A stretch of 63,897 nucleotides of DNA, counting the filler, from Neolecta irregularis DAH-3 (taxonomy: Eukaryota), in the NCBI GenBank assembly GCA_001929475.1. It is 16 parts of 16 records of this genome, joined end to end, with 100 filler letters (N's around TTAATTAATTAA, not from the genome) between each part and the next. Parts side by side here need not be neighbours in the genome. Positions count along the whole stretch, not along the records: positions 1,332 to 3,560 come from LXFE01001408.1; 15 more parts are not named here. One strand, written 5' to 3'. The notes beneath the pieces were generated by a model. That model saw only the letters and a program-made list of their open reading frames with translations, searched no databases and had not been told where the DNA came from. Both the position numbers and the translations under genes were made by a program. Shown piece after piece: positions 1,332 to 53,383 of this stretch. Numbering within the stretch: the stretch's first letter is position 1; each line of letters opens with the position of its first letter.

Positions 1332-1441
1332 GTAGGATATTCCCTGTTTTAGAAAATGGAGATATTTCTTTTGTGTGGCTGGCGAACGCAGCCTAAACTG
1401 AAACAATCCTCTCTGAACCTTTTTTCTACTTATCACAAACC

Positions 1442-2900
1442 ATGTTGTCGATTTTGATGTTCATCGCGTTGTGCGCAAAGCTTTCCTTTGCAAAGCAGAG
1501 CCTCGATTCTTTCAAAAAGGTTGAGGCTACTGTGTTCAAATACTTCTTGGGCTTTGATGAGACGCCTATTCTCTCCAACACTTTGGATTCGAAAATATCT
1601 CCCGAAGAAATTTGTGCTACAGGATGCTTGGATGCCCCATATTTCTGTCGCTCTTTTGTTTTGACAGATGTCGAAAATCAACTCGTATGCCACTACTTTC
1701 TTGAATCAGCACCAATAGTCGGAAATATCGGAAATACTAATGATCCACGATATAAGTTGCGGTCACTATATGAGTATGAAATTGAGATTTTGAAAAGTTG
1801 TCTTATGTTCTAGTCGCACCACTATCGATTTTGTGTCCACTGTTTCAGAATTGTCTAAAGATTATTACCAAATTTCAGGCCAAGACTGGCTAAATAGGGC
1901 AAAGTATCGATATGGCGGCTCTCTCCTAGGCCCAAAAAACTCACCCTTGGATATATTTCTTCAAATGTGCTTTGAAGCTTGTCAATTGGCCAATATGCGA
2001 CTTATGGATCCTATACCCTCAAGTACTATGACAGCTTCGCGATCAGATATTCTTGCTCGAAAGCCACTCATTTCCGCATTCAAGTCATGGAATGCTGAAC
2101 ATCCTCAATCTTCGACTTCCTTTTATCAACTTGTATTGCTTTTTCTCAGGTTGTCTTATGGACACCGAGACAACTTTTCCTATTATTCCAGCCAGTATTT
2201 CTTTGCCATACTTGATCGGGATTTTGTTGAGTATCCTGATCGAACTGATGTTCCTCGAGTATTGGTCTTTCCGTTTGATTCAGGCCACTATGTGACAATC
2301 ACAGCTGGCCTATCCCATGATGAGATCACATACATAACTGATGGTGATACTGCCCAAGCAAAAAAGAGGGTAGATGAGGCTTGGGAAATATACCGACAGC
2401 AGTCAGATGAGCTACTTGAGCTACTACCAGGGACAACGAAGCTTCGGCTGCTAGATGGCGTTAGCATGACAAAGATTATCACGTACACCTCAGACCAATT
2501 TTCTCAGCCTGAGCTTCACCGAAAATTGGCAATAGCAGTGGTCGGGCACGTTGCGACAGTAATGGACCTTTCAAATAATATACAGTTCAATAACCCACTT
2601 CCATCAAAGGCCATAAAGGAGATGATGACATTTGTATTATCATGGGTTTACAAGGTTCGTCAATCAGATCTCGAACCAAATATTTTTATCGCTCAAAAAA
2701 TTAAAAGTATTCTGGAGACTTCGGAAAGAGACTCTCAAAATGGAGTAACCAGAACGATTGCAGATGTCAGTATTATAACAGGTTCCAGAGATCTGGAAGC
2801 GGGGACTTCAGAAACCAACTCTCACAGGCGCATAACCGGCCGAAAGAGAAAGAATGAATCAGACAGCGATCTGGAGACAAAAAGAACTAAATACATGTGA
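1442..2900 (+). CDS. Secreted protein with PAN/apple-like header, orphan C-terminal domain and NLS-like tail (2 exons, about 472 aa)
   Basis: Signal peptide MLSILMFIALCAKLSFA; CATGCLDAPYFCRSF..VCHYF; phase-2 intron 1774-1813 (GTATGA..TAG) joins ORFs 1442 and 1833 in frame; C-terminus RRITGRKRK..KRTK. Confidence 0.75.
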
Positions 2901-3013
2901 ATTTATCACTAGGGCAGTGAAATATTTTCTTTCTCTTACTTTCTATATTCAATTAAACTTGTGTTTGAATGCCTCGATGTGGGTCCTAAGAATAACCCCG
3001 AAAGAGGTGAGGG

Positions 3014-3345
3014 TTAGGTATCGGCGCCAGCCCACATGCGTACAGGCAGCGGCTCCGGCGGAAACCCGCGCTTCCGCTGCGTATGCACCAAGCGCAGCCC
3101 CGCCTGCGCAAACACTGCCTCCAGCGCGGCCGCACTGCGCGTCACACTGCTGTCCTCCGCGTTAAACACAGGCCCCGCCTCGCTCACGTTCTCCTGCCCG
3201 CCAGCGCCTTCTCCCCGTGGCCGACCTTGACAAACACCACGCCGCCCGCCCGAAGCCCTCGCCCGAACCGCTGCAGCGGCCCCGCCAGCGCGCCGTCCTT
3301 GAGGTGCCCCATCGTCCACTGCATCCTCGCGTCAGCCAGCCCCAA
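3014..3345 (-). pseudogene. TAE1: 5'-truncated fragment of alpha-N-terminal protein methyltransferase (NTM1/TAE1)
   Basis: Spliced (intron 3194-3225) it reads MQWTMGHLKD..GGVVFVK/ENVSEAGPVFNAEDSSVTRS..GFPPEPLPVRMWA, matching the NTM1 C-terminal half; GC-rich island in AT-rich DNA; upstream exons absent. Confidence 0.75.
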
Positions 3346-3660
3346 CTCAGAGCCAATTTAAGTGTTGGAGCTCGAGTACAACAAGATCAGGTATATTTCC
3401 TAAATATACTGAACCTTTTTTTGGATTCCAATTCGCCGTGATAAAATGAATGTTTGCTACTGTAAGTGTTCCCCTGAAGTACAAATAAGACCCGGTATAT
3501 ATTCTAACCAAGGTAAGTGAACTTCCTATATACATGAGTATACCTAACCAAGGTAAGTGANNNNNNNNNNNNNNNNNNNNNNNNNNNNNNNNNNNNNNNN
3601 NNNNTTAATTAATTAANNNNNNNNNNNNNNNNNNNNNNNNNNNNNNNNNNNNNNNNNNNN

Positions 3661-4079: not shown

Positions 4080-4300
4080 GTTTTATAAAATGGGTCTTCT
4101 TGAAATTCGAATTTTGCGCGTTTGGTGCGCACCACACTTCATAAAATATGATTTTTCTTGAAATTCGAATTTTAGTCGCGCCTTTGGTGGGCTCCATATT
4201 TTATAAAATATTGCTCTTCAAAAAATTCGAATTTTAGGCGCGCGTTTGGTGCGCACCACATTTTACAAAATAGGGCTTTTCATGTTAGGCGCGCCTTGGG
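4080..4300 (+). repeat. About 3.5 copies of a 60-bp subterminal repeat (TTTATAAAAT..TGAAATTCGAATTTT..GCGCGTTTGGTGCGCACCACA)
   Basis: Visible tandem units with a reverse-complement copy near the right end of the element. Confidence 0.85.
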
Positions 4301-5032
4301 TGAGGATCCTCCCATATTCTTCAAAAAAGAAAAAACAGGTGTAGACCTGTTTTATACGAAGATACCAAAGTGGAAAAATCGCCCAAGTCCCACTCCCACA
4401 ATACCCATCTGGAACAATTGGTACTCTACAATCTGCTATTACAAAGTCTAGATAGTATTTCAATCCCTAATGTTTTGGAATAAGCAGTCTGAATAGTGTC
4501 GCCTGGGTCCATGGGCCAGCCCAGCCCTCTGAAAATCCCATGGGCTTTGGCCCTCCCCAAGACAGGTTGTATGACGAAGCAGGCAGCAGTACCCTTTATG
4601 GGGGAATATGCAGTGGAGCGGCTGATGGCAAAGAGGACATGCTTACAGCAGGGGTAGCATGGTATAGCAGGAGCAGGGTCAGCTGCAACTTCCTACCACT
4701 AGATGGAGATGGAGGGCCACCATGCAAGGGGTTCACCAGACTCCAACATCCACGATGCCAGCCTGGCATACAAGCCCAACAGCTTCGTGAAGCAGTTGGT
4801 TAGTATCACCTGCACAAGCTGCATCTCATCGCCTACTACAGCCATGCCCAGCTGGGGGTGATGCAGACACCCTCGCAGGGCCCACGTCTTAGAGGCATTG
4901 TCCCGCCGGCCGTGCGAGACAGAGTGGGGGATGGTCTGGAGGTGGGCGTAGCGATCGAGGAGGGTGATGACGGTGCTCTCACCACCAGGGATGATGAGGG
5001 AGGGCATCCCAGCGGGCGAGGTGGATGGTCAG

Positions 5033-5791
5033 CAGTGTTGGGGATGGACCATGGACCGGATGGACCGTGTCACGTGATATTGGATTCCTATTATGAAAAT
5101 AGCTGCTACAGGATCAACACATCCTTGATTCTCCACAACTCCCTCGCCTACCTGCCTCGCCTGCCCACCTCTTCAGCCTTGCATGCCTGTCTCGCACCTC
5201 GCCAGACCCACCCGCCGTTCCAGTCCCACCCGACTTTCTAGTCCTGCCCGCCTTTCCCGTCCTACCAGTCCCTCCTTTCTCTCCTGTCTTTCCCATTCCG
5301 CCCGTGTCTACTCTCCTCCCGCCCGTGCCTCCTCTCCCGTCCTGCGCGTCCTGTCCCACCTTGCCCATCCCGCCAGTCCGTGTCCCGCCCATGCGTCCTC
5401 TCCCATCCCACCCGCCTCCCCTGTCCCGCCAGTCCTTCCTATCTTGCGCACCACTCTTGCACCACCTCCCATCTTGAGCTCCTGTCTTGCCCACCTCTCT
5501 TACCTCTCAAACATCACACTATGGATAAGAATTAGGAATAGAGAGGGACACAAGTACTAGAAAGTATATCATATAGAAATCTTTATGAACATATCAATGC
5601 TTAGAGTCTGGGAACAATCACTATTCTACAATCTCCTACTAAAAAGCCTAGGTAGTATCTCAATGTAAAACACTTTGGCATTGGAAAGCTCATATCAGGA
5701 AAATGGTAATCACATGATATGCATGGACCATGGACTCGACATGACCCTTGGAAAAGTCCATGGGCTGGACTTTGGTCCATCCCCAACACTG
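5033..5791. mobile_element. hAT-like MITE nested in the Harbinger element
   Basis: Perfect 19-bp TIR CAGTGTTGGGGATGGACCA / TGGTCCATCCCCAACACTG; GGACCATGGA-type subterminal motifs at both ends; no transposase; TSD only degenerate. Confidence 0.7.
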
Positions 5792-6336
5792 GGACGGTGG
5801 CGGTGATGGGCAGGGCCGCGACAGAGAGTGCGTGGGCAAGGCGGGCGAGCCAAATTTTATAAAATGTGGAGCGCACCAAACGCGCGCTGAAAATTCGAAT
5901 TTCAAGAGAAGTCATTAGTTTGGCGCGCACAAACGCACCGCACCCTAAGTAAAATTGAGGAAAGCACTCCACGACATCGAGTTTTGAGAGAATCTATGAA
6001 ATTCCCAAAGTGCTAGTTACCACAGGTTTCAATACCTCGAGGAAGCAAGCGTAAGCATTAGTAGCTGGCCTGTCATTGTTTGCCGCGGTCCATAATACAT
6101 TTGGGCAAAGCTTTTTCGTTGAACGGATTATCCTGACGAGTCTATCATGTCGTACACGATGTCATCTTTTTCAACAATGTCACCATCGATTTTAAAGTAT
6201 ATCTTATTTTAAAGTAATATTGCCATTTGGTTTCTTTGTTTTGCTGGTAATCTTCAAACACTGTCCTACTCTCGTTACGATTTACGTACGACTATTACAG
6301 ATGATTGTGTATTAATAATTATTCAAACCTTCACTT

Positions 6337-6679: not shown

Positions 6680-6780
6680 NNNNNNNNNNNNNNNNNNNNN
6701 NNNNNNNNNNNNNNNNNNNNNNNTTAATTAATTAANNNNNNNNNNNNNNNNNNNNNNNNNNNNNNNNNNNNNNNNNNNNC

Positions 6781-7129
6781 GTCGCCCAGGCGCTGCTCGC
6801 GTTCGGCGCCGCGTCCGCCGCCGCCGCCGCGCAGTGCCCGCGCGAGCTCGCGTACCTGTGCCAGACGCGCGCCGCACACGAGTCCGTCGCGCTGCACGCG
6901 CTGCTCAAACAGCCGGAACCGCTCGCGGCCTGGCACGCGTACCACCTGCTCCATCTCGCGGCGGTCCTGCTCGGCGACGCCTACCGCGAAGCCCTCTTTG
7001 GCCTCGGCTGGCTGTTCTTTGCCGCCAGGCTGTCGATCCCCCTGCACCTCGCAAGGGCCAAGTACGCCTTCTACCGCCGCCGCCTCGCCGCCTGCCCCCT
7101 CCACGCCCCCCTCGACTCCTCGCCCCTGA
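6781..7129 (+). CDS. 3' end of an unidentified GC-rich gene
   Basis: Open frame VAQALLAFG..AWHAYHLLHLAAVLLGDAYREALFGLGWLFF.. with near-exclusive G/C at third codon positions. Confidence 0.45.
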
Positions 7130-7904
7130 CGCTCGTCCGGTCCGCCCTGCTGGACTTGTCCTGCCAGTACACGCCCTTTGTGTATGTATAGCGTGATATC
7201 AGATTCATATTACGTCGGTAAATATAATATCAGTGTCTGTGTCCGCGGTTTCGATCGCAGGGCTTCCTGCTGCTCGCCGTGCTCGATCCAGCCAGTCCTG
7301 CCAGCCACATTCCAGACCATCGCTTGATACGCATCCGTGAAAAACGCGTGTCGCGAAACTTCCACGTGCTCAACTCACCACCGTACAGCAACGCGTTGGT
7401 ATTGCAAATTCGCTGTACGTTGCTTCAAATCGGTAGGTTCTGCAGATACACTCTTGACATTAGTCAGCCGAGCTATATCTTGGCCGCTACGTACTACGAG
7501 ACAAAGAGATTTCTGTCCTCGAGATTGCGTTCTTAGAATATTGTCCTTGGTGAGTGGTCGTATCAGAAGTAGATAAATCCCGGTATAGAATAGGTCAGAA
7601 GGAGGGAAGTAGATTTGGAATGAGATAGGTCAAGGAAATAGTTGCGGAACATGGAACAGCAAGCCATAATACTAGTAGATAAATACAGTTTCGGTAACTG
7701 TCGGAACTCCTATATCCGCATTTGAGACCTACTGACACAATTTAAGTAAAGTTCCCGCCAGATTTCTACTTCGGGTTTTGTCCGAGGTCTAAATCAGACT
7801 AGAAAGTAAGAAAACAGAAAAATTACATCGTCTTCGCGATATGCCTTCGTCCCCCATTCCTTTCTGCCTCTATCCCCAGTTACTTTCCACCGCTCTATTA
7901 TTAA

Positions 7905-9112
7905 ATGAACTTGATCGTGCCCTTGCTCCTGGCCTCAAACTATGAACTTGTCAACAGAGAAGAAAAGGAATGGTCGATTGGTCCAGTGTCATTTTTTAAA
8001 CCGAATCCGCAAAGTCTCTTTTGGACCGCGTACGGTGTCTATGACCGCGGAAACCTCGAGGAGACAGTGCAGTACTGTTCCAAGGCTTGTAACAATGCTG
8101 TGTTTCATTGCGCCTCATTTGCTGTCGCCAAAGTATCCAGAGAAAATGTCTGTGCTCTTTTCCCTCGTATGCCGACGCCTATCGACCCCAGTAGACTGGT
8201 GTTTCAGGGTGGGATGCCAGCGAATGTGAAGACTATTATTTATCGGTTGCTGCTACTTGTGGTAATCACACCACTGACGTAATCAGACCAGTTCCTCCTC
8301 GCAAGGGTCCTCCCGCGATACTAAGAACGATATGGGAATATGCTACCTATCAAGACTGGAAGGCTCGAGTCGTTGAAAAATATGACCTCGGCCCGGAACA
8401 CATCTTGCCCTTGAGATTTTTCTATGCTCTGTTATTCGAGTATCCGTTTCCTCCATCATCGGACGCTATTCAATCGGATAAGAAGGCTTTCGAAATGATC
8501 CTCCAGAATCCTTTTTCATATAGTACCAGTTTCTCGCCAATAGAACATATCACCAAACTCCGGAATGAATTCACAAAGGGATTCAATGTCCTTGATTTAG
8601 ACAACCATTCAGAGCTTATAAATGCGATCCTGGCGACTTTTAGAGCAGGAAAAGAACGCGCCCAACTTGACGCATGCGTCGACAATGATAAAAACATTAA
8701 CCCAAATGTATGGGATGTTCAATATAACCAATATGAACCGCTCAAGAAACCTTTTATCGTGCTAGAGCACTTTATTGATAAAATTCATGTCGTAGTTTTT
8801 TCCATCGGCTTCGAATTTTCGTCAGAGGAAAAGTCTCGGCTATTTTTAAAACCTGTCGAATTTCAATTTCTATATCCTGAAGAACATGGATTTGAAAAGA
8901 AAACCGCCGAGTTTGTTATTCAAGTTTATATCAACGCGTTGTTGTACGGCAATCACCCAAATAACTGGAAATTTTCCCAAAATTCATTTTTCAAGGATGC
9001 TTATCTCGCGATGATATGGACTGCCATTGGTGGGAATGAATCCAAGGTTCCGTGGATCTCACAAACTCGGACTAGACATGCCGATGCTTCTTTTATCTTT
9101 ACTGAGGAATAA
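7905..9112 (+). CDS. PAN/apple-like header plus orphan C-terminal domain protein (2 exons, about 388 aa)
   Basis: CSKACNNAVFHCASF..VCALF; phase-2 intron 8246-8286 (GTTGCT..CTGAC..CAG) joins ORFs 7905 and 8405; shares QDWxxR..Y..GP..PL..F..FE with the 1442 gene; short hydrophobic N-terminus. Confidence 0.7.
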
Positions 9113-9666
9113 AAAGTTTTCTATTCCAGATACTAGTTTAATGATTTGTGTATGTTCCAGTTGAGATAGTGTTTTTTAACAAGCAGGTCGTCGCCCAAGT
9201 TAGCGTAGTCCTGGCGAAAAATTGAACTAGTTGTATAGAGGCCCGGGTGTATCTGATTTACAAATAGCTATACAAGTCGACAACAGAGAAACAGGTTCAC
9301 TTGGAGGTCTATGATCAAGGAGAAGCAGAAGAACAAGGATAGGACACGAGCGAGAAATCAGGGCTGAACTCGGGAAGAAATCTAGAGTTCATATGATACG
9401 GAACTGGCCGCAGAGGTGCCGAATGTCTCAGGCAATCTTTGAACAGAAACAAAAAATCGAGTCATCCACACGCATGTCTGACCTGATCTGTCTCATTGGG
9501 TTTCAGTTAAAAGATAAAAAGGATCCCTCGTTCTTCAATATCCCTCGCAGAACCTTATTGCAGTCACTCTCAAAGACCACCAGTTTCTATATTCGCCAAA
9601 ACATATCATCCAGATCCGTTAAAACATCCAGATTTCACTATAAATAATATTTACTCCTTATCTGCA

Positions 9667-9797
9667 ATGAGATCGATTTTGTTCGCCCTGTCATTGATTT
9701 CAGTCTCCGCAATCGAAAACTACCAACTTGCTGAAGAGAAGAACTTGGACTGGTATCGCGACCCATATCTTGCGACACCTCCAGAAGTTCTCTTTTG
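9667..9797 (+). CDS. Secreted protein, tandem paralogue of the 7905 gene (5' fragment)
   Basis: Signal peptide MRSILFALSLISVSA followed by NYQL..W, similar to NYEL..W of 7905; truncated by a linker. Confidence 0.55.
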
Positions 9798-9897: not shown

Positions 9898-10239
9898 GGG
9901 CAGCCGCTGCGCAACAGGGCGCGGTCCAGCGTGTGCACGGCGGCCTCTGGCTGCTGCTGCTGCACCAGCCGCACCGCCTGCACCAGCGCGGTGTCTGCGT
10001 CCAGCGCGCGCCAGCACCCGCCCTCGCGGATGTGCTGCTGGGCCAGCAGTGGCAGTGACAGCGACAGTTCGGTGTCGTTCGCCTGCCCCTCGCTGCCTAG
10101 CGCATACTCCCGCAGCTGGCTCGCAATCCCAGCCCCGCACGCGCCCACCCGCTCTGCCCTTAGCCCGCAGTCCTGCGGCACACATACCCGTGCTCTCGGC
10201 CGCAATCCGCTGCAGTATCTCCTCCAGCTGCGCTTCCAT
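9898..10239 (-). CDS. JmjC protein JMJD5/KDM8-like, 5' part
   Basis: CWRALDADTAL..VHTLDRALLRSGC resembles the fungal JMJD5 N-terminal CWRRLYTDA..LDRALI.G motif; one short intron. Confidence 0.5.
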
Positions 10240-10314
10240 GGTTCGTCGACGTCGTTCCGCCCACGTGATCGAGGGCTCCTTATATGACCCTCCCCCCTCC
10301 CCTCCCCTCTCTGC

Positions 10315-11481
10315 ATGTCCTTTGAACAAATCGATCCCGCTCTCGCAGACTCCTTCTTCTCTGCTCAGGCAATAAACCTCGCAGACCCCCTCCTCGGCGC
10401 CCACATCCATTCCTGCTCAAACCAATTCTTTGCCCCCGCAAAAAACATCATCAACCCCCTTCCCCCCGTCCACAAACCCGGCGTCTTTGTCAAAACAGGT
10501 GCCTGGTACGACGGCTGGGAGTCAAGTACCTCCTCTCCCCCACCCCCTTTAACCCCCAAGAACGCCACAACCCTCAGCCCTCAGACTGGGTAATCATCCG
10601 TCTCGGTCCCCCGCGCGCCTCCATCCTAGGCGCACAAGTAGACACCGCCTTCTTCACAGGAAACTATGCCCCCGCTATCAGCATCGAAGCCACTTGCTCA
10701 AACAACATCACTAAAACTACAATAGTCCAATCGCCCCCCTGCTTTGGTCTCACCCTCTAGTGGTCAGAAGTCATCCCATACACCCCATGCGGCCCCTCCC
10801 AGCGCCACTTCTATCGCCTCACCAGCCCTTCCACAACCCCATACACACACGTCCGTCTGCAAATGTACCCGGACGGCGGAATAGCCAGATTCCGCCTCTA
10901 CGGACACGTCGTCCCGCTCTTCCCCCCATCTTCCTCAAAAATAGACTTGGCAAGCGTCCTCATGGGTGCAATCGCCGTCTCCTGCTCAGACCAACACTAC
11001 GGTCAAAAACACCACTTGTTGCTTCCAGGTCGTGGTCTGCATATGGGCCACGGCTGGGAAACCAGACGCTCCAGATCAGAAAATCACTCCGATTGGGTCG
11101 TTGTAAAGCTTGGCGCCTCTGGTTATTTGTCCCATGCCCAAATTGATACCCTCCATTTTAGAGGAAACTATCCAACAGAATTATTCCTCCTCGCTACAAA
11201 CTCCCACGATGTACCCTGCACCCCTAACCCTAACCCTACCCTCGCTAATTAAAAGCTCATCCCAAAAGATGACACTGACTGGACACAAATCCTCCCCCCA
11301 CAGAAAATGGGCCCAGACTATTTGAAATCATACCCCCTCACTCATACAAATATCCCCTTTACTCACGTCAAAGTATGTCCCCCCTCTACAAGTCTAACTC
11401 TAGATGGTCATCGTACCAGACGGCGGCGTTAAACGTCTCAGAATATTCGGAAAGCGCGCCCTCACACAATCAAAGTTGTAA
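10315..11481 (+). CDS. DAL2: Allantoicase
   Basis: [50 protein letters not shown]; multi-exon; ends in SKL. Confidence 0.95.
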
Positions 11482-29424: not shown

Positions 29425-29620
29425 GCTGTTATAGAGCGGGCAAACTAGCGGGCATTCTACGCCTGCATTGTCGAGCAGCGCAGCCTTCAGAGTTAAACTC
29501 CACGACATCAGTACACCCAGTGTAATCGGTGGAAACCCGAAGCGATCAGGGGAAACTCCAAGCAACCAGCGGAAACTCCACGATACGCGGATTCGATTCG
29601 CTCACGTGCGGATTCCCCCT

Positions 29621-31576
29621 ATGACCACCAGGCGCGCCAAGATGGACGGCAGCATCGCATTCGAGTATGCCGCCGTCGATAGTCGCCGTGTCTCAGAGGA
29701 CGGGCTCGAGCTGGGCAGCGGGACAAAGACCGGTGAGGGTTATGCCGGTGAGGGGTATGAACACAGTCCCCGCCGCTCAGAAGGCCGCCAGATCATGTTG
29801 CTGGTGCTGTTGTGTACGTGTTTCCTTGCTGCTGCGATATCCAGTCTGGATCCAGCGAATTCAGTCTGGAATCAGTCTGAATTCACTCGGATCTAGCGAA
29901 TTCAGTCGCTGCGATACATCGCTAACCGCCAGATCTGCTTCAGGGTGTTCCCACAGGCCTCGCGTTCGGCTCGGTGCCCTTTCTGCTCAAATCCCGCCTC
30001 TCCTACGCCCAGGTCGGCATCTTCTCCCTCGCCTCCTACCCGTATTCCCTCAAACTCCTCTGGAGCCCCGTCATCGATGCTGTCTACTGGGCCCGCTTTG
30101 GCCGCCGCAAGAGCTGGATCGTGCCCGTCCAGTGCTGCAGCAGCCTGCTCTTGCTCGTGCTCGGCACCCGCATAGACATCCTCCTCGTCGAGCCGGAAGC
30201 ACACGTCGCCGCATTCACCGCCATCTTTCTGCTGCTCATCTTTCTCTGCTCCACCCAGGACATCGCCGTCGATGGTCTATATCCCCGTCCATCGCGCCCA
30301 CTAACCCGCAGGCTGGGCATTGACCCTGCTCGCCCCGGAGAACCTGTCCTATGCCTCCACCGCCCAGACAGTCGGCCTCAACACCGGCTACTTTCTCTCC
30401 TTCACTGTCTTTCTCGCCTTCAACTCCCCAGAATTCGCAAACAAGTACTTTAGAGCAGTCCCGCGCCCAGATCCCCTCCTCACCCTCGGCGGCTACCTCT
30501 CCTTTTGGGGCTGGGTCTATCTTGTCGTCACAATATGGCTCGCCCTCTGCAAGACAGAGGCATCCTCCCTTTTCTTCTCTCCCTGACCCCAAGGCCCGCG
30601 AACGAGCATCAGACGGTGGTCTCAAGTCTGTCTACCTCACCATATGGAAGATTCTCAAGCTCAAGCGTACAAATCCCTCACCCACATAACGCTCATTCCT
30701 AGACATCCAGCTATTTTGTATCGTCCTCCTCTTTTCAAAAATAGGCTTCGTCGCAAACGACGCCATCACTAGCCTCAAGCTTCTCGAAAAGGGCTTCTCC
30801 AAGGAAGACCTCGCTCTCACAGTCCTCATCGACTTTCCCTTCGAAATCATATTCGGCTACTATGCTGCAAAATGGAGCAACGGCCCAGACCCCCTCCGGC
30901 CCTGGCTGCTGGCGTTTGTCGGGAGACTGGCGGCCGGCATCATGGCCATGCTTGTAGTATGGAGTTTTCCCGCAGACGGCCACGTTACTAAAATTTACTT
31001 TCTCGCCGTCATCATCCAAAATGTATTTGGTTCGTTCATGAGGTATTTCTTCAGAGTCCAGGCAAGCCTGACTCTGTTAGCACGGTTCAGTTTGTGAGCA
31101 TCTGTGCCTTTCACACTCAAATTGCCGATCCTTTAATAGGAGGAACTTATATGACTGTGAGACATTACATGCGTCTTCCCTTATCACTGACACTAAATCA
31201 CAGCTTCTGAACACAATTTCTAATCTTGGAGGAACATGGCCTAGGATTCTCATATTCAATAGCGTTGATTGGTTTACGAAAGCAACATGTTCCATTGACG
31301 TGCCGGAGCCGACACTATTTGCAGGTCTCCCGCCGATCCCACCGTTTCATCATCAACCCTGACCTTCTTATAGATCCCAGGTCATGTGCAACTGAAGATC
31401 TCAAGAAAGCGTGCATCAAGGCCGGTGGTATATGTAACATCCAGCAGGACGGCTATTACGTTGTCAGCGCACTTTGCATCGCTGCTGGTTCGGCATTATT
31501 TTTTTGGTTCATCAAACCTTCTATTCTCAAACTACAAGCACTGCCTCTGAAATGCTGGAAACTCTCTTCTAGGTAA
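29621..31576 (+). CDS. Acetyl-CoA transporter (SLC33A1/AT-1 family MFS)
   Basis: SLASYPYSLKLLWSPVID, TQDIAVDGW, YASTAQTVGLNTGYF, IGGTYMTLLNT, DGYY. Confidence 0.92.
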
Positions 31577-34514: not shown

Positions 34515-34745
34515 ATATTCTAGTAATGTGGAGCGTGTGTGGCACCGCTGACGGGATATTGACTGCCACACCAAAATTCAACTCAAAGTCCGTCAACCCA
34601 CTCACCTGTCCATTTTCTTCTTTGGCCGGATCCAGGATGATGATGGCGGGTATTTCCATTTCTTATCTCAGTAATCTATTTTATCTCTACTTCCGGGGAT
34701 GCTGGTACGCTGCTGTGCAGCCATTTGACCGCTCCCGGGTTTTCT
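34515..34745 (+). repeat. Dispersed repeat, copy 1 (second copy at 53384-53590)
   Basis: Shared GTGTGGCACCGCTGA..GCCACAC, GATCCAGGATGATGATGGCGGGTATTTCC, CTGCTGTGCAGC and CCGCTCCCGGGTTT. Confidence 0.85.
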
Positions 34746-36578: not shown

Positions 36579-36774
36579 GTGTGCAAAAGCTAGATTCCCA
36601 TATTATGAAGATTTGCATTAATGAACTCATCCCAAAGAGACCAACGATTCTATATCCTTGCGCGCAGATTTCTCGGCTTTCCATGTCTTATACTCAGGCT
36701 CAATTTGTGTTTCCTCGTCTCGCTTCTTTCGCAATCTTTCTTCTTGTTCAGATCTCCTTTCGACTTCTCCCTTG
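36579..36774 (+). repeat. 196-bp near-exact duplicate of 41117-41312
   Basis: Identical except for two substitutions; followed by a 10-N gap. Confidence 0.9.
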
Positions 36775-40543: not shown

Positions 40544-41164
40544 TGGGCTGGTGTGGGTGTAGTTGCTGGTAACTTTTGGAGTAGAGGCTCACTCAAGTCT
40601 GAACTTTTCGTTCTCCAATTGTCCTGCGGAATGCAAGATGGGTTTTTTTCCTCCTTGCGCAAGTTTAGTAGCGTTGCACAATAATTTGTGCAAAGTCTTT
40701 TGTAGGAAATAAATCGGAAAATGCAATCGGATAAAATGTTGTCAAATCTCAAGTTTGAATACTATGTGTCTTTGCTCACTTTTGTCGTTCTGACAAAGAA
40801 ATGTTGCCCATATGCAATAACAGGATCCGGATCACACACAGAATATTCCAAAGCATATATAGCCTCGTGATTCTTGGCTTTGCGTGGATAGAAGGATGAT
40901 TCTAATATCCCAGACTTGCTATCATGATATACGAGGGCCTTATAGATGTGTAATTTATTTCATGTACATTACAATCGTTGAATTGAGAAAGTTCATCAAG
41001 ACTTGAATTCCGGGACATTGAGTCAGAAATTGCCAGGAGATATTCGCGCGTGATTACACTCCTTAAAGTCTCGATGGCTGTTTTACAACATGAGCATAAA
41101 AAATCCACAGAAACAAGTGTGCAAAAGCTAGATTCCCATATTATGAAGATTTGCATTAATGAAC

Positions 41165-42108
41165 TCATCCCAAAGAGACCAATGATTCTATATCCTTGCG
41201 CGCAGATTTCTCGGCTTTCCATGTCTTATACTCAGGCTCAATTTGCGTTTCCTCGTCTCGCTTCTTTCGCAATCTTTCTTCTTGTTCAGATCTCCTTTCG
41301 ACTTCTCCCTTGTACCAAGCGGCAGCAAATAGAAGTGACAATATTAAAACAAGCCCCACTGAACATCAGTTTGAAGACAAGAGCAAGTCCTACGTATTCC
41401 TTTCCGCGTCGTGTCCCATTTATATCCTTCCAGTCTTGTTCGCAAGTCTCCAAGCATGATTGTAAAGCGGTTGTTAAGCTCCTGTATCTTGATATCCATA
41501 GCGTTCTGCCCCCCTCTTGTTTCATTCTTCCGATTGTTGACATCTATGTCAACTTCATGGCGCATATTTGCAAGATCTTCCTTCAACTGGCGCTCAAAAA
41601 GTTCGTATTCCCGCTGTAAAGCCTGGAGATCCTGCTTCAACGCAGCTGTTTCGTTCATTCTGGTAATTTGAGTTTCAGATCGCAGTTCTGACATCGCAGC
41701 TTGGAAAAGATAAACTTCCTGACCGTTAGACTGCTAGTTAATTTTTGTAGTTACATTTTCAAGCTCTCCTCTTAATAGGAACTCCGCTTTAGCAAATTCG
41801 GAACTGTTTACAAGTAAAGCACGTAGAGCTTGCATAATTGCAAAAGACTGACCATACGAGTACTCAGCCTCACCTAAAACCGTAACCAATTTATAGGTAT
41901 CGAAAAGATGCATAGCTGCTGGTTTTGGAGGCTCCTTGGGAAGGCCCGGAAGTTCTGATAGTGTTACCGCAGTAGCATTGTGCATCGACTCGCTTAAAGG
42001 TGGTTCTACTGGCGTGCTCGAGGAAAGTGTACTAGAAAGCCTTATTGACAATATTTGCAGTCGTCTCGGGCACAGGAAACCAAGAAAAGGCTTAGGTGCT
42101 GCTCTCAT
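41165..42108 (-). CDS. Mitochondrial DUF1640 (CCDC90-like) coiled-coil protein
   Basis: Presequence-like N-terminus, HLFDTYKLV, coiled coil, KWDTTRK followed by a TM helix. Confidence 0.85.
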
Positions 42109-42789: not shown

Positions 42790-43495
42790 TCATCTCTTCA
42801 AAACACCAAATATTAACCGTGTTTTGGCACAGTACGACGCAATGTGTTCTTGCATCTTCTTCTTCGAATCGTCCTCCAAAGACAAAATCTAGAGTTATTA
42901 ATTTTATCAGTGTCTCGATTTACCTCTTTCTCGAGCACGGTGATTGTTTCTCCTAATGTTGATTGACCATCTGTGTCATTTGAGGTCCCCAGTAACTCTT
43001 CAAGAAAAGTAAAATCAAAAACAAGCTGTAATGCCCCTGTCCGATGAATCCTGTATGGTAATTTGATCTCGCTTGAGTCATCGCGATTGTCGCAGTTAAT
43101 AAGTGCAACGTCAATATTTTCCCGTTCCAATTGATTTGTATCACTTGCATCAACCTTGCATTGTTCTGCCTGCTCATAATTTTCATCCGCTTTGGTTTCT
43201 GATAGCTCTGTATTATTTTCATCGAATTTGGGTTCCTCCAATTCATCATGTCCATCAACTAGTTCTGATTGCTCTGTATTACTTTCAAGTTTAGGTCCCT
43301 CAAATTCATCATTTCCATCAACTAGTTCTGATTGTTCTGTATTATTTCCATCGAATTTGGGTTCGTCCAATTCATCATTTCCATCAACTAGTTCTGATTG
43401 CTCTGTATTCCTTTCAAGGTTAGGTCCCGCTGTATTATTTTCATCGAATTTGGGTTGGTCCAATTCATCATTTCCATCAACTAGTTCTGATTGCT
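42790..43495 (-). CDS. COG1: COG1-like subunit, 3' part, with acidic tandem repeats
   Basis: ALQLVFDFTFL and terminal YCAKTRLIFGVL resemble the COG1 C-terminus. Confidence 0.6.
43195..43495 (-). repeat. Coding minisatellite, 66-bp unit (NTEQSELVDGNDELDEPKFDEN)
   Basis: At least 4 units visible, running into the assembly gap. Confidence 0.9.
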
Positions 43496-45409
43496 NNNNN
43501 NNNNNNNNNNNNNNNNNNNNNNNNNNNNNNNNNNNNNNNTTAATTAATTAANNNNNNNNNNNNNNNNNNNNNNNNNNNNNNNNNNNNNNNNNNNNCATGC
43601 ATTCACCCTGTTGTACATATATCATGGTTAAAATGGAAAACGGAAATGGCAGAAACAGTCAGAATCCTGTGTTCTAACCCGGTAAAAGTCTCAAGAGAAT
43701 ACTCCTAAGATCACTGAAGGGTAGCGTCATTATCCCCGTCCTAGGGTGACAAATTCTCTGTATATATTAGTAACTAGATAGGCCAGTTCAACTAATATTG
43801 CTTAGCAGCAATAAAAGTAACTCTTGATCTACTAGGAACCATGCTCCAAGTATAATCCTCGACTCTTGATGTATCTTTCAGGGAGTTACCAGTGAAATAC
43901 CATAACCAGATACACCTAAGTATCAATAGTCCTTATATATCTACTGTTAAGCTACCACTGAGTATACCCGCAAGTCTTGGATGTATATCAATGAGGGTCT
44001 TTCCTTAGGCACCCTCAATCCCCACAGTAGCTATGACTCTATGAGCGAACTCAACCAAAGATACATGGATGTAAGATTGGGACTTCAAACTCTATAGATG
44101 CAAACCCACTGAGTATACCGGCGAAATTTTATGTGTAACAAATGGAATTTTATTGTGTCCACAGAAAGGTACTCTACTTCCCTTTCATATATCCTGAGGT
44201 CATCCTACCATCAATTTTCGCCAGGAACAACTCAATGTCCTTTTTCCACTAGTGCCATATTAATTTACAAATATTTCCCCAAGTCCATCCTGTCGCGCTA
44301 TATTTTCCTAATTTCCTTCGTATCCGAGTAGGTAAGGTATGACGAACCATACATCGACCTGTAGAGCTCGGCGAGGCAGATCTTTTCGCTGTATACTTAT
44401 GGCACCCGTGATGGACCGTTGCTGTGTTATTCCAGGTTGAAGTTTTCGCATTTTCATTTAAATCCCTGCTGACGACTAATCTATGAGGTAACCTTGACAG
44501 AATGTTGTACATCCAGGTAGAGCTTTCCGAGACTAAACTTCCTGCTGTATTAAGTCCCATATAAATTGTTGCTCGTTCCTGAGTTATTGCAGGTCTGTTG
44601 TGGTATTATTGAACTTAGGCTTCTTCAAGGATAGAGTTATTCCGCAAGATACATAATTCTTGCTCAAGGTACTCCCCTAGGTATTTCCCATCCCTACTGA
44701 GTAGTTTACCACAGTTAGGGTATAGGTCCAGCTGTCCAAATAACTCTCCCCATTACTCCCTCCTCTTTCTCTATCTATTATAAATAATTATATACCTGCC
44801 TTCCTTTAACATATCACAGCAGTATAGTGGCGGAAGACCCCAGAAGGTTCCAGGCCCTGCCAGTATATTCTGTAGCTGCTAATTAGCAGCATTACTGTAT
44901 TATAAGTAGATAGGCTTGCACCACCAGTACCCTTGTCTTATCACAACAGTGCTAACATGCAAGGTAATATAGGTCTTATCACAAGAGTACTGACATGCAA
45001 GATACCCAGTTGATACTGCTAGTATCTTACAACTGTTTCTTTACAATGAAAGAGCAGTAGTTAAACTTTATCCACAANNNNNNNNNNNNNNNNNNNNNNN
45101 NNNNNNNNNNNNNNNNNNNNNTTAATTAATTAANNNNNNNNNNNNNNNNNNNNNNNNNNNNNNNNNNNNNNNNNNNNGATTATTTCCCATCTAAGAACTA
45201 GGTTTGACCCAACAAGGCAACTTCAAATTGTAATCATTGGATTAATGATGTGCCAAGCGTTAGCATTGTGGCTCATTCTTGTAGAAGCAAGGAAGAGAAA
45301 ACCCATCAGATAACCAGAAAATACCACGTATACGAGTTTCTTGCGACAAGCACTGTTACATTGATATGAGCATAAATTGGCACACTTACAAAGGTGGTAG
45401 CCCCCTAGT

Positions 45410-46924
45410 TTACTTGAATAATGAAACTTTATCATGAAGGAAAAATAGTTGGTCCTCTTCATCCCATTTGTCTGCTGATGATGACAAAATCGCATTTTCT
45501 GAAGTCTCCAAACCAGGACTAGGTGAAGCCTCACTACTGGGAAAAGGAAGATTTTCCAAATCATTAGCGTGGTGGGACCTCACCATACTGGAAGAGTCTT
45601 GTGGAGGTACCGATGTATCCTCATTTCTGGAAATAATTTGTGGCTGAAGTTGATCGCTATAACAATCCAGTGAATTGAACGGCGATACAGCCTGAAGTTT
45701 CGCCACAGGGTTTTCGACAAGTCTCGTCGCTTTTGGATGTATATCTGCTGATGGAGCCACTCTAAAATCAATGGGGACTGTGCTTTTTATCCGGTCAAAT
45801 TGGAGAAAGTTTGGGAGATTCTCAAAGGATGTTAAAAGAAGAGAGGTTTCTGCTGTCCCAGAGTCGAAATTGCTATCGCATGAGGGTAATTTGTTTACTC
45901 GAGTTTCAACTGTGGGGACTGGGTTTGTCTTGTCTATTTGGATAATATTCCCAGACATTATTGGTCCTGGAGTACCCTGGTTGTCCGTACTGGGGACAGT
46001 TTCATACTTCGTTGGTGTCGAGGACTTCGTGCTAATGCTTTTCTTGAGCCTCTTCCTGTGTAATATGCCATTGAGGGTATGTTCTTCAGATGTGACAAGT
46101 TGTATCTTTGTTGGTCTCTCTCGTTTTGAGGGTCTAGGCGTAGGGGTGTTACCATTACCAAGGTCATGGGATTCATTCATTTCATGTCTAGGATCGAAGG
46201 TCGAAGAACCCCAAATAGTCTGGTGATTTAGAACTGTCCTGTCTATGGCCGAATGATAAGAAAGAGAAAGAGATGCAGAGGCAGGTATGTCCAAATTGCC
46301 TTTCAACGAAACATCTTCATTTTTTATTGGTCGGTTGTAGTTGGACTTCTTTGGGAGCGGCCTAACAAGAGGCAAAAAGGTTAAATATGCCCATGTTGCG
46401 GGCGATTTGCAAAATGTATTTGGCGTGAGCGCTGCAATGATTTTCAACGCATCCTGTTGAGGTTGTGTAGGATTGATAATCCAGTGCTATAACATCAATA
46501 CGGCTAACACTTTGGACTGATCACCAGGAAATCGAATGATTGTTTCAAATTTTGACGACGAGTTTGGCATGCGCCGTATTGAAGAGATACGAAAGCTTTA
46601 TGGAGCTGTTCACATCCGTCTAGAATAACTGACATGATCTGAAAAGGCTTCCCATAGTCCACTTTCTTGTAAACGTATTCATGTGTAGGACAGAATGGCA
46701 TTCCTTCTGGCGGTGGATCGTTTATGAATTGCGATAGCTCGAATACTCGTTTGTCCACAAATGACTGCCGTTCTTCAAGAGTCTTTGGTGCAGTGTACAA
46801 AGATTTCACAGTATTTTGTTTGATGTAGTCGTTTCCATGTAGCGTTGCAGCAACAGTCCAAATGAATAAAATGCTAGCGTATCAATCGATATCTTGGGGA
46901 AACGTAGTACCTCACAAGAAACAT
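45410..46924 (-). CDS. Secreted orphan protein, tandem copy A (3 exons, about 479 aa)
   Basis: Exons 46924-46911, 46873-46525 and 46486-45410 give MFLVSILFIWTVAA-TLHG..; all junctions GT-AG and in frame. Confidence 0.75.
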
Positions 46925-47323
46925 TTCTAGAGGGAGAGTTTGATATTCCAACAAGTATGTAGTAGCCTTTCTCACTTGACTTGAAATTCTTTTTTTTCAT
47001 GTCTTTGGCGTTCAGACAGTCCAAGCCATCCAAATCAAAACTTGGGATTGAGCTTGTAGCACAAAGGTTAGAGTTGTGAAGTTTCTGTAACACTGACATT
47101 AGATAGCTTGGATAAAAGCAAAAAGATCTTAGGTTTTTGGCTTGAAGGGGCAGAGCATATCCTCTCCCGCCATAAGGAAGAGCTATGTTTAGTACTAATG
47201 TGTATAAACTAATACAGCCAAATGACTTAAATGGTCAACCAACGGTTATAGAAGTGAAACAAGTGTATTTTTTCGATTGATATGAGCCTAAAGTGACACG
47301 GGCAAAAGTGGTAACCTCCTAAT

Positions 47324-48743
47324 TTACTTCAATAATGAAACTTTATCATGAAGGAAATATAGATGTTCCTCTCCATCCCATTTGTCTGCTGATGATGACA
47401 AAATTACACTTTCTGACGTCTCCAAACCAGGACTAGGTGAAGCCTCATTACTGGGAAAAATATCCAAACAACTGGCGTGTTGATGAGAGGCTTGTGGACG
47501 TAACCATGTAACGTCATTTCTAGTAAGACTTTGTAGTTGAAGGTGATCGGTATAATCTTCCAGCGAAATGAATGGCGATGCAGAGTGACGTTTCGCCGGA
47601 GGAATTAGGACATCTCTCATGGCCATTCGAGGTACATTTGATTGTGGAGCCTGACTGAAAACGACGCTGGGGGCTTGGGTTTTTATCTTCGTGAAGGGGG
47701 CCGTGTCTCCGCTGTTTATTCCGATGATATCTCCAGACCCTATTGGTCTTGGAGTGCTCTGATTATCTATAGTAAGGTCAATCTCATATTTCTCTAGCAC
47801 TGTCGAGGGCATTGTGTTGAAGCTCTGCTTCAGCCTCTTCCACAACATCTCATTCAGTGTCCGTTCGTCAGACATGACAGGCTGTACGGCTCTTGGTCTC
47901 CCTCTTTTTGAGGGTCTGGACGCGGGGGCGTTAGCAGGACCAAGGTCATGGACCACCTTCATTTCATGTGCAGGATCAAAAGTCGAAGACGCTCCAAGAG
48001 TCGTTGGTGATTGTTGGCCGAGACGAACAGAAGTTTGAGGAGTCTCCAAAGAGTGAGAAATAAACTCATTGATGGGTATGTTCAAATTGTCTTTGGGCGT
48101 AAAAAGGTTCCATCGTTCAAAATTCTCGTATTTCAAATTCTCGTGTTCCAATTTCTGGGTGTTGAATGCATTTGGAAACGGCCTAACAATAGGCAAAAAA
48201 CTTTGTTCCGCCCATTTGAATGGTGAATCCAAAGATGGTGAAAGTGCTTCAATGATTTTCAACGCTTCATTTCGATATTTGTTGAGACTTTTACCCAAGA
48301 ACTAGAACATCAAAATTGGTGTCACCACTGGACTGATCACCAGGAGTTGTAACGAGTCTCTCAACTTTTGACGGCGGTCTTGAAGTGCGCGGTAGCGATT
48401 AGATTTTGCACCTCTTTTGAGTTGTTCACATCCATCTAGAATAATTGAAATTATCTTATAAGACGCCCCATAACCACTCTTGTTCTTGAATTCATTTGTT
48501 TGACATAATGGCATTCCTTCTGGCGGTGGGTTTTTTATGAATTGCGATAGCTCGAATACTCGTTTGTCCACAAATGATTGTCTATCTTCAAGAGTCTTTG
48601 GTGCAGTGTACAACGATTGCGCTTGTGATGTATTTTGTTCGATGGTGACTTTTCCAGGTAGTGTTGCAGCAACGGTCCAAATTAATAAAATGCTAGTGTA
48701 TCAATCGACATCTTGAGGGAACGTAGTACCTCACAAGAAACAT
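47324..48743 (-). CDS. Secreted orphan protein, tandem copy B (3 exons)
   Basis: Same intron positions; MFLVSILLIWTVAA-TLPG..; shares YTAPKTLE.RQSFVDKRVFELSQFI and EASPSPGLETSE..SSSADKWD with copy A. Confidence 0.75.
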
Positions 48744-49058
48744 TTCCAGAGGGACAGTTTGATATTCTAACAAGTATGCGGTCTTTCTCACTTGACTTAA
48801 ATCCTTTTTTTCCATGTCTTTGAAGTTCAGAGCCGGTTCCAGCCATCCAAATCAAAACATGAGATTGAGTTTGTAGTACACAGGTCAGAGTTGTGAAGTT
48901 TACGTAACACTGACATTGGATAGCTTGGATAAAAGAAATTAGCTCTTTGGCTTGGAGGGACAGAGCATATGCGGCCCTCAACGAGGAGCGGGTACAGTGT
49001 GTTGCGAGGAAGGTGCAATATTGCCTTTCTCTTAAGTTCCAGTTTCACTCAGGGTGAA

Positions 49059-49879: not shown

Positions 49880-50979
49880 ATGAACAGCGAACCGCCGCCG
49901 CTGGGATTGACACAGGTGGCCGTCGCGGCATCGCTGCTGGTGGCGACTTGTGTGCTGTCTCTTCTGATCGGCGCCGATATCGAAGTCGGGCTGGCTGTGG
50001 CCGGGCTGCGGTGCACAGTGCAGCTGGCTGTGCTTGTGCGGCTGTCTTGTCTGTGAATCGCCTGCTGATTGGCGCAGGGTGCTGTACTCGACCGCGTCTT
50101 TGCTGCTCAAAGTCCGTTTGTCGCTGCCGGTCTTCTCGCGGTGATGCTGCTTGCGGGAGCGGCCCAGGTTGTGTTTGTCCGGGCGGCCGTGCGCCACTCC
50201 GCTATGGTGCGCCTCGCCCGCGCGCCACACCCGCAACTCACCACCAGTTCCTGTCGGTGCTGCTCGCGCTCACGGTCGCAACTGTTGCGGTCTCCCTTTT
50301 GACGACTGCGTTTTGCCTGAACGCGCGGCCTGCATGGACTCCCCGGGCGCTTGTGCCTGTTGCAGGCATGGTTCTGGGAAACGCGATCTCCGGGGTGTCG
50401 ATTGCGCTCGACGCCTCGCTGCGCCTGTTCACGTACGTGCACCGCCACCACCGCGCCCTCGCTTACGCCAAGCGAGCACCAGGCGCGCCTACAGGTGTAT
50501 CTCGCCTTTGGCGCGACGCGCTGGGAGCTGGGCCGCGATCTGCTGCTGAAGCCCGCGGTCCGCCTCGCGCTCACGCCCATTGTCACGCAGATGAGGTCTC
50601 TCCGCCACCTGCGCGCTGCTGACCCCGCAGCATAATGGGCCTCGTCGCAATCCCCGGCACGCTCACCGGGTCGCTCCTCATCGGCGGCCAGGTCGCCCAG
50701 GCCATCAAGTACCAGCAGATCCTCATGTTTGTCCTCTCCGCCTCCACCGCCATCAGCGTCATTCTCGCAGTGCTGCTCGCCCTCGTGGTCTGCATCGACT
50801 CAAACCACCAGCTCCGGCTAGATCGCATCCACTCCTTCTCCCTGTGGCAAACAATCTGCCAGCTCAGAAAACACAACCGCCTGCGCCAGGCTTCAGACCC
50901 AGAAGCCGTTGCGCTGCTTCGCACCGAATCGCGCTCTCCAAAGAGATCAAAAAGGAAAAGATCTTCTATAGCCGCATAG
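49880..50979 (+). CDS. UPF0014 (FetB/YbbM, STAR2/ALS3-like) membrane permease
   Basis: LRCTVQL, PVAGMVLGNAISG, LAFGATRWE, MGLVAIPGTLTGSLLIG..AIKYQ; GC-rich, multi-intron. Confidence 0.88.
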
Positions 50980-51822
50980 TATTCATATATTGACCCCCTC
51001 TACCCCCACTTAAATTTCGCCATACCTCCTCCGAGTCCCGTGACATATTTCACATGTGTACACACCCTGGCACCGGTGCCCCGCACCGCAAACTACCATG
51101 ACTCCCCCAACGGTTCAAGGCTCACTGACGTCGACACCGACTAAAGCAGCCTGACGGTGGCAAGCAGTACCACCGAGCTAAGTCAGGACTTTCACAAACT
51201 TCGCCACCCCCGACGTATGCAGGGAGGCAAACAGAGTTGAGGAAGCGCAGGTGCCAGTTCTTCTATAAGTAGGGTCTGGCTTGATTAGCAAACCAGGCCA
51301 ACCCGGAGCCAGAATATACGTAGTTGCCTTTATTTCCTGAATCGCGATCGTTTATTTCCAGCAAAGCCTGCTGAGCGGCAAGTCCGGACACCCAACGCTC
51401 ACATGAATGAACGAAAAAGTTTCTAAATATAAATGCGATAGGTGGGATGAAGGCGCAATGAGATACAGTCAAACCTGGATATAACGAATGTGGTTTGGCA
51501 GCGTTTTCAGTTCGTTATAAGGAGTATTCGTCGTATGGAGATAGGCAAATAGAAAATAAACAAGATCCAAGCAAATCCAAACCAAATGAATCAGAGAGAA
51601 AAATAACTTATTGAATAACAATGTGTTTTCTCTTATTTTGGAATGATAGATAGAATGAATTAGCAAATGACAAAGACGAAGGAGGAACTTGGTATTTGGT
51701 GATAATAGTGGAAGGCGAGCAGCTGTAATGTGGAATATAACGTCAATAATTTACAACCCAATCTTTTATCTTGCAAATCAAAAGACTCGAGGGGCCAACG
51801 ACAACGGATAACGGAGATGATA

Positions 51823-52154: not shown

Positions 52155-52483
52155 NNNNNNNNNNNNNNNNNNNNNNNNNNNNNNNNNNNNNNNNNNNNTT
52201 AATTAATTAANNNNNNNNNNNNNNNNNNNNNNNNNNNNNNNNNNNNNNNNNNNNCAGGCCTCCAGTATGACCTCGCAATGATGCAGTTCCTCAAGCCGAG
52301 CACCATATCGAACAAGTCCACTATTCCAACTGGGTAGGACATATTAAGATTCAGCCTCAAATAGAATATTTCAACTGCAATTCCGCACTCAGAAGCATTT
52401 GGTTTGAAGAGTCAGCCATTTTGCTAAAATATTTTTTAAGGGTGACATGCCCGCCCTAAATCTTTTTCAATTTGTCGCGAACC

Positions 52484-52718: not shown

Positions 52719-52868
52719 GATTCAGCCTCAAATGAATATTTCAACTGCAATGCCCGCATTCAGAAGCATTTGGTTTGAAGAAGAGTCAGCCATTTGCTCT
52801 TTTTGTATTGTAAAATATTATTTAATCGCGAGGTGCCCGCCCTAAATCTTTTCAATTTATCACAAACC

Positions 52869-53366: not shown

Positions 53367-53383
53367 TGCCACACATGAAGGAT

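Follow-up and report, generated by a model that had tools for sequence, protein, structure and literature searches.

We describe gene 1, an unannotated gene at positions 1442–2900 of a 63,897-nucleotide (nt) stretch of the genome of the fungus Neolecta irregularis DAH-3 (assembly GCA_001929475.1), hereafter called the window. We propose that gene 1 belongs to a Neolecta-restricted, multi-copy family of modular proteins of the secretory pathway, in which modules are recombined and whose products are effector- or toxin-like; taken as a whole, this reading stands evenly balanced between right and wrong. That there is a real family that is modular, expanded and lineage-specific is very probable. 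N. irregularis is an early-diverging, unculturable ascomycete of the subphylum Taphrinomycotina, and Neolecta is central to the question of how complex multicellularity arose in the Ascomycota. The window consists of 17 pieces of 196 to 17,348 nt each, with spacers of the form N44-TTAATTAATTAA-N44 between them, and the GC content of its contigs is 40–52%; the available text of PMC5309816 gives the N. irregularis draft as 14.5 Mb with an N50 of 16 kb and 44% GC, wild fruiting bodies having supplied both DNA and RNA. The parts of gene 1 are as follows.

1420–1492, plus strand: leader cassette, 22 nt of 5' untranslated region (5'UTR) and 17 signal-peptide codons, MLSILMFIALCAKLSFA, recognised by identity to gene 3
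1442–1773, plus strand: exon 1 (leader, linker and four-cysteine motif), from the open reading frame (ORF) and the splice model; the end is 1755 with the alternative donor
1613–1699, plus strand: four-cysteine motif CATGCLDAPYFCRSFVLTDVENQLVCHYF, from a pattern scan; the spacing is PAN-like, the family unproven
1774–1813, plus strand: predicted intron GTATGA..CTAG, 40 nt, phase 2; the alternative is 1756–1813, 58 nt
1814–2900, plus strand: exon 2, a cysteine-poor payload of 361 residues with no known family, homologous to NEOLI_003911 residues 72–360
2838–2897, plus strand: basic C-terminal tail GRKRKNESDSDLETKRTKYM, resembling a bipartite nuclear localisation signal (NLS), found by regular expression

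The modular construction of the family is seen in the relatives of the gene 1 payload, as we call its exon-2 product. A phmmer search of 1.84 billion representative proteins with this payload returned two proteins at E 0.001. One was NEOLI_003911, from the same species (E 2.9e-22); the other, a repeat protein of 3686 residues (phmmer E 2.4e-4), was rejected as spurious, its BLASTP E-values being 0.5 or worse. Residues 72–360 of NEOLI_003911, which has 373 residues, align to exon-2 residues 4–308 at 33% identity (BLASTP E 1e-33), and since the alignment starts at exon-2 residue 4, homology of the payloads begins 4–5 residues past the gene 1 intron. The alignment keeps the stretches GHY-TIT, DEI-YI--DG, AIAVV-H and TFVLSW-YK--QSD-E. 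The first 70 residues of NEOLI_003911 form a different header, with another hydrophobic leader and no cysteine. This header recurs in NEOLI_005224 (58% over 69 residues, E 6e-17), and there the similarity ends, the tail of NEOLI_005224 (payload 2) being lysine- and proline-rich and unrelated to payload 1. Together with genes 2 and 3, two further members in the window (7905–9113 and 52869–53291), the following pairs of header and payload are found.

Cysteine header with payload 1: gene 1
Cysteine-free header with payload 1: NEOLI_003911
Cysteine-free header with payload 2: NEOLI_005224
Cysteine header with payload 3: gene 2
Cysteine header alone: gene 3

These mixed pairs show that headers and payloads assort independently, and the combinations in NEOLI_003911 and NEOLI_005224 bear out the proposal, made in an initial annotation of the window, of a header joined to variable payloads. 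The payloads contain 0–3 cysteines per 241–373 residues, and a three-way alignment of NEOLI_003911 with the exon-2 products of genes 1 and 2 keeps a W, an F and P-x-S-S. As separate observations, the public model of NEOLI_005224 begins 19 residues ahead of the conserved leader methionine, and PPPP occurs in its tail together with two segments of the form L..I/L...LK+. These features resemble actin-binding WH2 motifs; Pfam and PDB sequence searches with the protein found no match.

As that annotation had also supposed, members are not few. Many paralogous contigs were found in two contig sets, X1 and X2, which come from two public runs of one study and are labelled 'DNA?'. Contigs were placed on positions 1332–3560 (2229 nt) at an identity of at least 85%, and their depth was summed per 75-nt bin. 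In this way 260 contigs were matched in X1 and 94 in X2, with identity classes of 67/74/69/50 and 15/24/27/28, respectively. Distinct contigs with another base were counted at positions 1476 (20 in X1, 13 in X2), 2079 (15, 6) and 2300 (11, 3), and contig ends diverge at 1493, which is the end of the leader. The X1 contigs identical to the window have a depth of 220–535, while the summed X1 depth of the bin with the leader is 16,485, that of 2082–2156, 2232–2306 and 2607–2681 about 10,000, and that of 1857–2006 390–550. Over the 14 bins of exon 2 the summed depth correlates with identity to NEOLI_003911 (in X1 the Spearman coefficient is 0.86, p 9e-5, and in X2 0.56, p 0.04), and because depth tracks protein identity from bin to bin, the extra contigs are paralogues under constraint at the protein level. 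Among the paralogues, coding sequence has indels of 4 + 5 nt (1712/1717) and 3 nt (2616), and the intron one of 1 nt (1788). Neither the predicted product of gene 1 nor the exact protein of gene 3 is present in the public protein collection, so most copies of the family seem to sit in a part of the genome that is unassembled or unannotated.

Gene 2 is the member with a public model, and it is laid out as follows.

7905–8245, plus strand: gene 2 (NEOLI_005084) exon 1, a short leader and the four-cysteine motif at 8076–8162, from the public model and the pattern scan
8246–8286, plus strand: gene 2 intron of 41 nt in phase 2, GTTGCT..TCAG; splicing it out reproduces the public protein
8287–9113, plus strand: gene 2 exon 2, encoding payload 3 (274 residues), which differs from payload 1 and has no Pfam family at threshold

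The spliced product of gene 2, of 388 residues, is identical letter for letter to NEOLI_005084, and the public annotation therefore has the same 41-nt intron as the initial one. Its exon 1 resembles exon 1 of gene 1 (BLASTP E 5e-5, in a single comparison). In gene 1 an ATG-initiated ORF covers 1442–1813 and another frame is open over 1794–2900; the frame is restored solely if 3n+1 nt are removed, and predicted splicing yields a protein of 472 residues. A second in-frame donor lies at 1756, where GTTGCG resembles the annotated GTTGCT of gene 2. It stands after a Tyr codon, at the point that corresponds to the gene 2 donor, and would give a 58-nt intron, likewise in phase 2. Both 1774–1813 and 1756–1813 are thus candidate models for the predicted intron of gene 1, which is not among the 15 contig joints listed out of 32. 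An intron of about 40 nt had been attributed to all complete members. It stands in phase 2 for gene 2 and, as a prediction with an alternative donor at 1756, for gene 1; in gene 3 a possible intron (GTTGGG..AG, 53256–53300) would be in phase 0 and is optional, since the ORF closes without its removal.

The leader of gene 1 is found at two further places in the window.

52869–53291, plus strand: gene 3, a header-only member with the leader cassette and a six-cysteine domain (53049–53159), a closed ORF of 140 residues
52484–52687, plus strand: leader-only stump in a tandem partial duplication; past the leader the sequence is unrelated and runs into a stop

Gene 1, gene 3 and the stump at 52484 have the 22 nt of 5'UTR and the 17 leader codons in common. 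In genes 1 and 3 the cassette is identical at 63 of 73 positions (86%), as against 17 of 42 upstream and 12 of 28 downstream (about 40%), and a BLASTN comparison of 1422–1493 with 52849–52920 gives 89% identity (E 4e-18). Conservation of the cassette stops at the GCA codon of ..SFA. Small residues at -3 and -1 mark signal-peptidase sites, and by this rule the ..SFA end is a likely one. The N-terminal hydrophobic cores of the family have 9-residue Kyte-Doolittle means of 2.2–3.0, and secretion of the family proteins, as predicted from these sequences, is somewhat more probable than its absence. The leader that the complete members were said to have in common is thus shared, at 89% in the DNA, by genes 1 and 3; that of gene 2 is short and unrelated to both. 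Gene 3 matches gene 1 by BLASTP in the leader only. The stump lies inside a 211-nt tandem duplication (52340–52534 versus 52711–52919, 84% identity). Two repeats were also observed around gene 3: an 80-nt unit present three times at 88–96% identity (52352–52425, 52599–52674 and 52723–52803), upstream of and inside the stump that precedes the gene, and a 208-nt repeat of 81% identity linking 53383–53588, directly downstream of the gene, to 34536–34742 on another contig.

The cysteine domain of the header was examined by pattern, against a chance level from 100 shuffles in six frames. A loose pattern has four sites in the window (0.02 expected), and a strict pattern has two (none expected). The core spacing of four cysteines, C-x3-C ... 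C-x-[SG]-[FC] ... C-x2-F, is present in genes 1, 2 and 3, and it fits the arrangement in PAN/apple modules, where a pair of cysteines four apart precedes two single ones on the next strands. The domain had been described as shared by the complete members; the pattern is indeed in all three and exon 1 connects genes 1 and 2, but gene 3 compared with the other two in this domain gives E 0.13 only. As to its assignment to PAN/apple, the spacing is like that of PAN_1, PAN_3, PAN_4 and MANEC, and the Pfam scores of genes 1–3 stay under the gathering cut-offs. In gene 3 the sole Pfam matches are sub-threshold ones to MANEC (20.9 bits where 25.5 is required; E 4e-4) and to PAN_3 (13.6 bits where 21.1 is required), both of which presumably belong to the PAN clan. 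In the PAN/apple fold, disulfides pin a helix that is packed against an antiparallel sheet; AlphaFold2 on a three-row header alignment gave a mean pLDDT of 36.0 and a pTM of 0.19, values too low for a usable model. Membership of the head in PAN/apple is unproven. The fourth site of the loose pattern is at 40620–40700 (CPAECKMGFFPPCASLVALHNNLCKVF), in a short ORF that lacks a start codon and adjoins an eRF1-like gene; we did not count it as a family member as there is no credible gene there, and it could be a chance match or a decayed header.

The searches found no relative outside N. irregularis, and restriction of the family to Neolecta is supported as far as sequence comparison goes. This agrees with the lineage specificity claimed earlier: among the 1.84 billion proteins the sole true relative of payload 1 is from the same species, and the sole protein found with the gene 2 payload is NEOLI_005084 itself. 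A word-based search with the gene 1 payload had no matches, its sensitivity being limited in that NEOLI_003911 was missed too. Viral and metagenome contigs scanned with a profile of the payload contained no relative, nor did metagenome contigs scanned with the leader DNA pattern. No Pfam family reached threshold for any family protein, and in the PDB sequences the payload 1 profile met ryanodine-receptor noise only (E 0.19), the cysteine-domain profile, NEOLI_005224 and NEOLI_005084 having no match. The gene 1 payload as a single sequence was modelled by AlphaFold2 with a pLDDT of 37.7. By language-model features it lies near unnamed giant-virus clusters (0.90–0.91), which is a lead only. The same approach gave Peptidase_C48/ElaD/C57 leads (0.88–0.89) for payload 1; an active CE-clan cysteine protease, whose catalytic Cys would lie downstream of a conserved His and Asp, was rejected, as there is no Pfam match and because the sole cysteine invariant with respect to NEOLI_003911, C56, precedes H158 and D169, and none is conserved after them. 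A dynein AAA-lid suggested by such features for payload 3 was set aside as noise, since its recognition value of 1254 is low and hit lists just as consistent are obtained for a third of shuffled proteins. In the literature on the Neolecta secretome, effectors and rootlets we found no such family described; supplements to the genome paper might list expanded families.

In the mechanism that we propose, recombination would swap the modules at, or close to, the junction of header and payload, which in genes 1 and 2 is the intron. The leader would direct the protein to the secretory pathway, the disulfide-bonded head could be a module for extracellular binding or uptake, and the cysteine-poor payload may act within another eukaryotic cell, that of gene 1 having a bipartite NLS-like end. 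The C-terminal end of gene 1, RKRKNESDSDLETKRTKY, fits the usual bipartite NLS pattern, and among nine proteins scanned with a regular expression gene 1 is the only one to do so, with the match at exon-2 residue 343. A disulfide head with cysteine-poor tails, one of them NLS-like, is the pattern of proteins that act in other cells, and for this reason we lean towards an effector or toxin role, a prediction that is possible but doubtful. A full combinatorial effector or toxin system, with the leader cassette in dozens of copies, a few header types, many cysteine-poor payloads that act within another eukaryotic cell, one of them in its nucleus, and recombination at an intron, we consider unlikely. 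If it were true, it would imply a hidden biotrophic or antagonistic lifestyle of Neolecta and would provide a fungal counterpart to the logic of Crinklers and polymorphic toxins, put together by exon shuffling. A large, secreted, fast-evolving family would also be a molecular lead to the ecology of Neolecta, in particular to the cells that it encounters, and the family would be a clean case in which a conserved leader cassette and a junction delimited by an intron let headers and payloads be swapped.

Several points weigh against placing gene 1 in an expanded family of effector-like proteins. The spliced model of gene 1 and its expression are predictions made from the DNA, and its four-cysteine domain, like that of gene 2, matches no Pfam family up to E 10, whether the whole of exon 1 or the domain alone is used. 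The payloads of genes 1 and 2 have no significant similarity (E 0.19; hhalign profile probability 0.3%), and the QDW..GP..PL..F motif that the exon-2 products were said to have in common is not upheld by these values. The leader of gene 2 is short, and paralogue insertions of 1–2 nt at 1823–1825, just within exon 2, break the pattern of coding and intron indels. There is one annotated payload 1 paralogue in the public proteome, so the high copy number is drawn from contig counts and from summed depth, which is not a copy number; and as no contig among those listed spans the whole stretch, gene 1 as assembled could combine pieces of several paralogues, linked at conserved blocks. The high depth in the flanks at 1332–1406 and 2907–2981 is as would be expected of a mobile unit, and Neolecta is described as saprobic or saprophytic in the available text of PMC6492006 and PMC7036362.

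Three other explanations would account for some of these points. The family proteins could be secreted but endogenous, serving as fruiting-body matrix, wall or adhesion proteins with a lectin-like head and structural tails and no role in conflict. PAN-type domains are general binding modules, which would suit such a use. So would gene 3, a small protein that consists of a header alone and matches the PAN clan below threshold, and the complex fruiting bodies and saprobic label of Neolecta in the available text of PMC5309816 and PMC6492006. We regard this explanation as improbable, for the payloads are cysteine-poor (0–3 cysteines), the NLS-like tail of gene 1 would be odd for a wall protein, and rapid divergence, relics and independent assortment are more typical of conflict genes. 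The depth of the flanks leads to a different proposal, in which a selfish or mobile element spreads the copies, or the copies are themselves that element, the flanks being element sequence and the protein serving the element. A Crinkler-like gene that amplifies together with neighbouring transposons is reported in the available text of PMC12957317. In X1 the non-coding bins 1332–1406, 2907–2981 and 3357–3431 have summed depths of 14,258, 7,317 and 18,130, compared with 220–535 for single exact contigs, and member-bearing contigs are short, as with repeats. Against this, the gene 1 contig has no terminal inverted or long direct repeats, the five family translations contain no Pfam match to a transposase, integrase or reverse transcriptase, the depth peaks within the gene follow conserved protein motifs, and a signal peptide would be unusual on a transposon protein; we hold a mobile element to be quite improbable. 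Finally, there may be no single family at all, genes of the gene 1 and gene 2 types being unrelated orphans that have a short cysteine spacing and a short intron in common by coincidence, with just gene 1, gene 3 and the 52484 stump tied together by a recently copied leader. The unmatched payloads, the different leaders of genes 1 and 2, the E of 0.13 for the cysteine domain of gene 3 and the presence of a loose-pattern site at 40620 in no convincing gene would all fit, but unrelated orphans would not be expected to show the match between the first exons of genes 1 and 2, the strict cysteine pattern twice in the window and never in 100 shuffles, or a motif that is equally distant from the phase-2 intron in both genes. 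This last explanation seems to us very improbable, and a modular family remains the reading that we prefer.

Among described systems, the closest parallel to the family is given by the Taphrina CSEP superfamilies I and II, which according to the available text of PMC7036362 are, like it, from Taphrinomycotina, lineage-restricted, secreted and of fast turnover; their motifs are arranged in modular fashion, their copies are clustered, and some members have lost the signal peptide. That text presents them, with seven MEME motifs, as small motif arrays of proven plant pathogens, whereas the Neolecta payloads have 270–360 residues. No sequence similarity to them was found in the search of 1.84 billion proteins, a library whose coverage of Taphrina is uncertain. 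Crinkler (CRN) proteins of oomycetes and some fungi have a conserved N-terminal header on unrelated C-terminal domains, as in Neolecta, and many are nuclear, which may be set beside the NLS-like tail of gene 1. The likeness to Crinklers drawn in the initial annotation extends to this logic of header and variable tail and not to the motifs: LxLFLAK and HVLVxxP are in none of nine family proteins, and a six-frame scan of the window has no LxLFLAK-like match either. The CRN header is ubiquitin-like and its junction is a recombination motif, whereas the Neolecta header comprises a signal peptide and a cysteine knot and its junction is an intron. The MSG genes of Pneumocystis, which also belongs to the Taphrinomycotina, with their upstream conserved sequence, resemble the Neolecta family in that a conserved 5' piece encoding a leader precedes the many divergent bodies of a multi-copy surface or secreted family. 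In Pneumocystis that leader is donated by one expression site, unlike in Neolecta, where a leader and a start codon are present in each copy seen; the two are not similar in sequence.

Turnover of the family by birth and death is observed within the window, in the leader-only stump described above and in two loci beside gene 2.

7261–7397, minus strand: relic with a frameshift, corresponding to the C-terminus of a gene-2-type payload, found by tblastn with the gene 2 payload (E 5e-5)
9667–9797, plus strand: start of a tandem gene-2-like neighbour with the leader MRSILFALSLISVSA, within which the contig ends (N-terminus versus gene 2, E 0.009)

The relic is inverted and lies about 500 nt upstream of gene 2; it consists of two neighbouring segments in different frames that match the last 50 residues of the payload. 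At 9667 it is the first 43 residues that resemble gene 2. With these, the family loci of the initial annotation at 1442, 7905, 9667, 52484 and 52869 are all found where it had put them.

Other features of the window may be noted. On the gene 1 contig, the bin at 3357–3431, about 460 nt past the stop codon, has the top summed depth (18,130 in X1, 642 in X2), with the ends of several contigs at 3359 and 3392; this is a separate high-copy repeat. Islands with a GC content of 57–65% are located at 3001–3500, 4501–5500, 6780–7400, 10001–11000, 29501–30500, 50001–51000 and 59001–60500, on contigs that are otherwise at 38–45%. Some at least are coding, and two family genes directly adjoin such islands. 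An ORF at 6781–7188 has G or C in nearly all third positions and no Pfam family, and one at 49810–50619 matches UPF0014. Around a GC-rich segment of 1.6 kb, direct and inverted copies of a 55–130-nt unit (80–89% identity) are present at 4081–4282 and 5847–5915, and these could be the terminal repeats of an element. No Rfam families or tRNAs were found in the window. The stretch 45360–47160 is duplicated in tandem at 47276–48970, with parts that are 82–89% identical in DNA, and contains minus-strand ORFs of 256 and 212 residues that are Ser/Pro-rich, match no Pfam family and bear no relation to the genes described above. A piece of 196 nt at 36579–36774, with runs of N on both sides, is 99% identical to 41117–41312, some 4.3 kb further on with only a gap of 10 N crossed, and is probably the result of assembly redundancy. 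At a contig end, positions 43197–43495 are made up of a tandem unit of about 66 nt whose copies are 85–97% identical.

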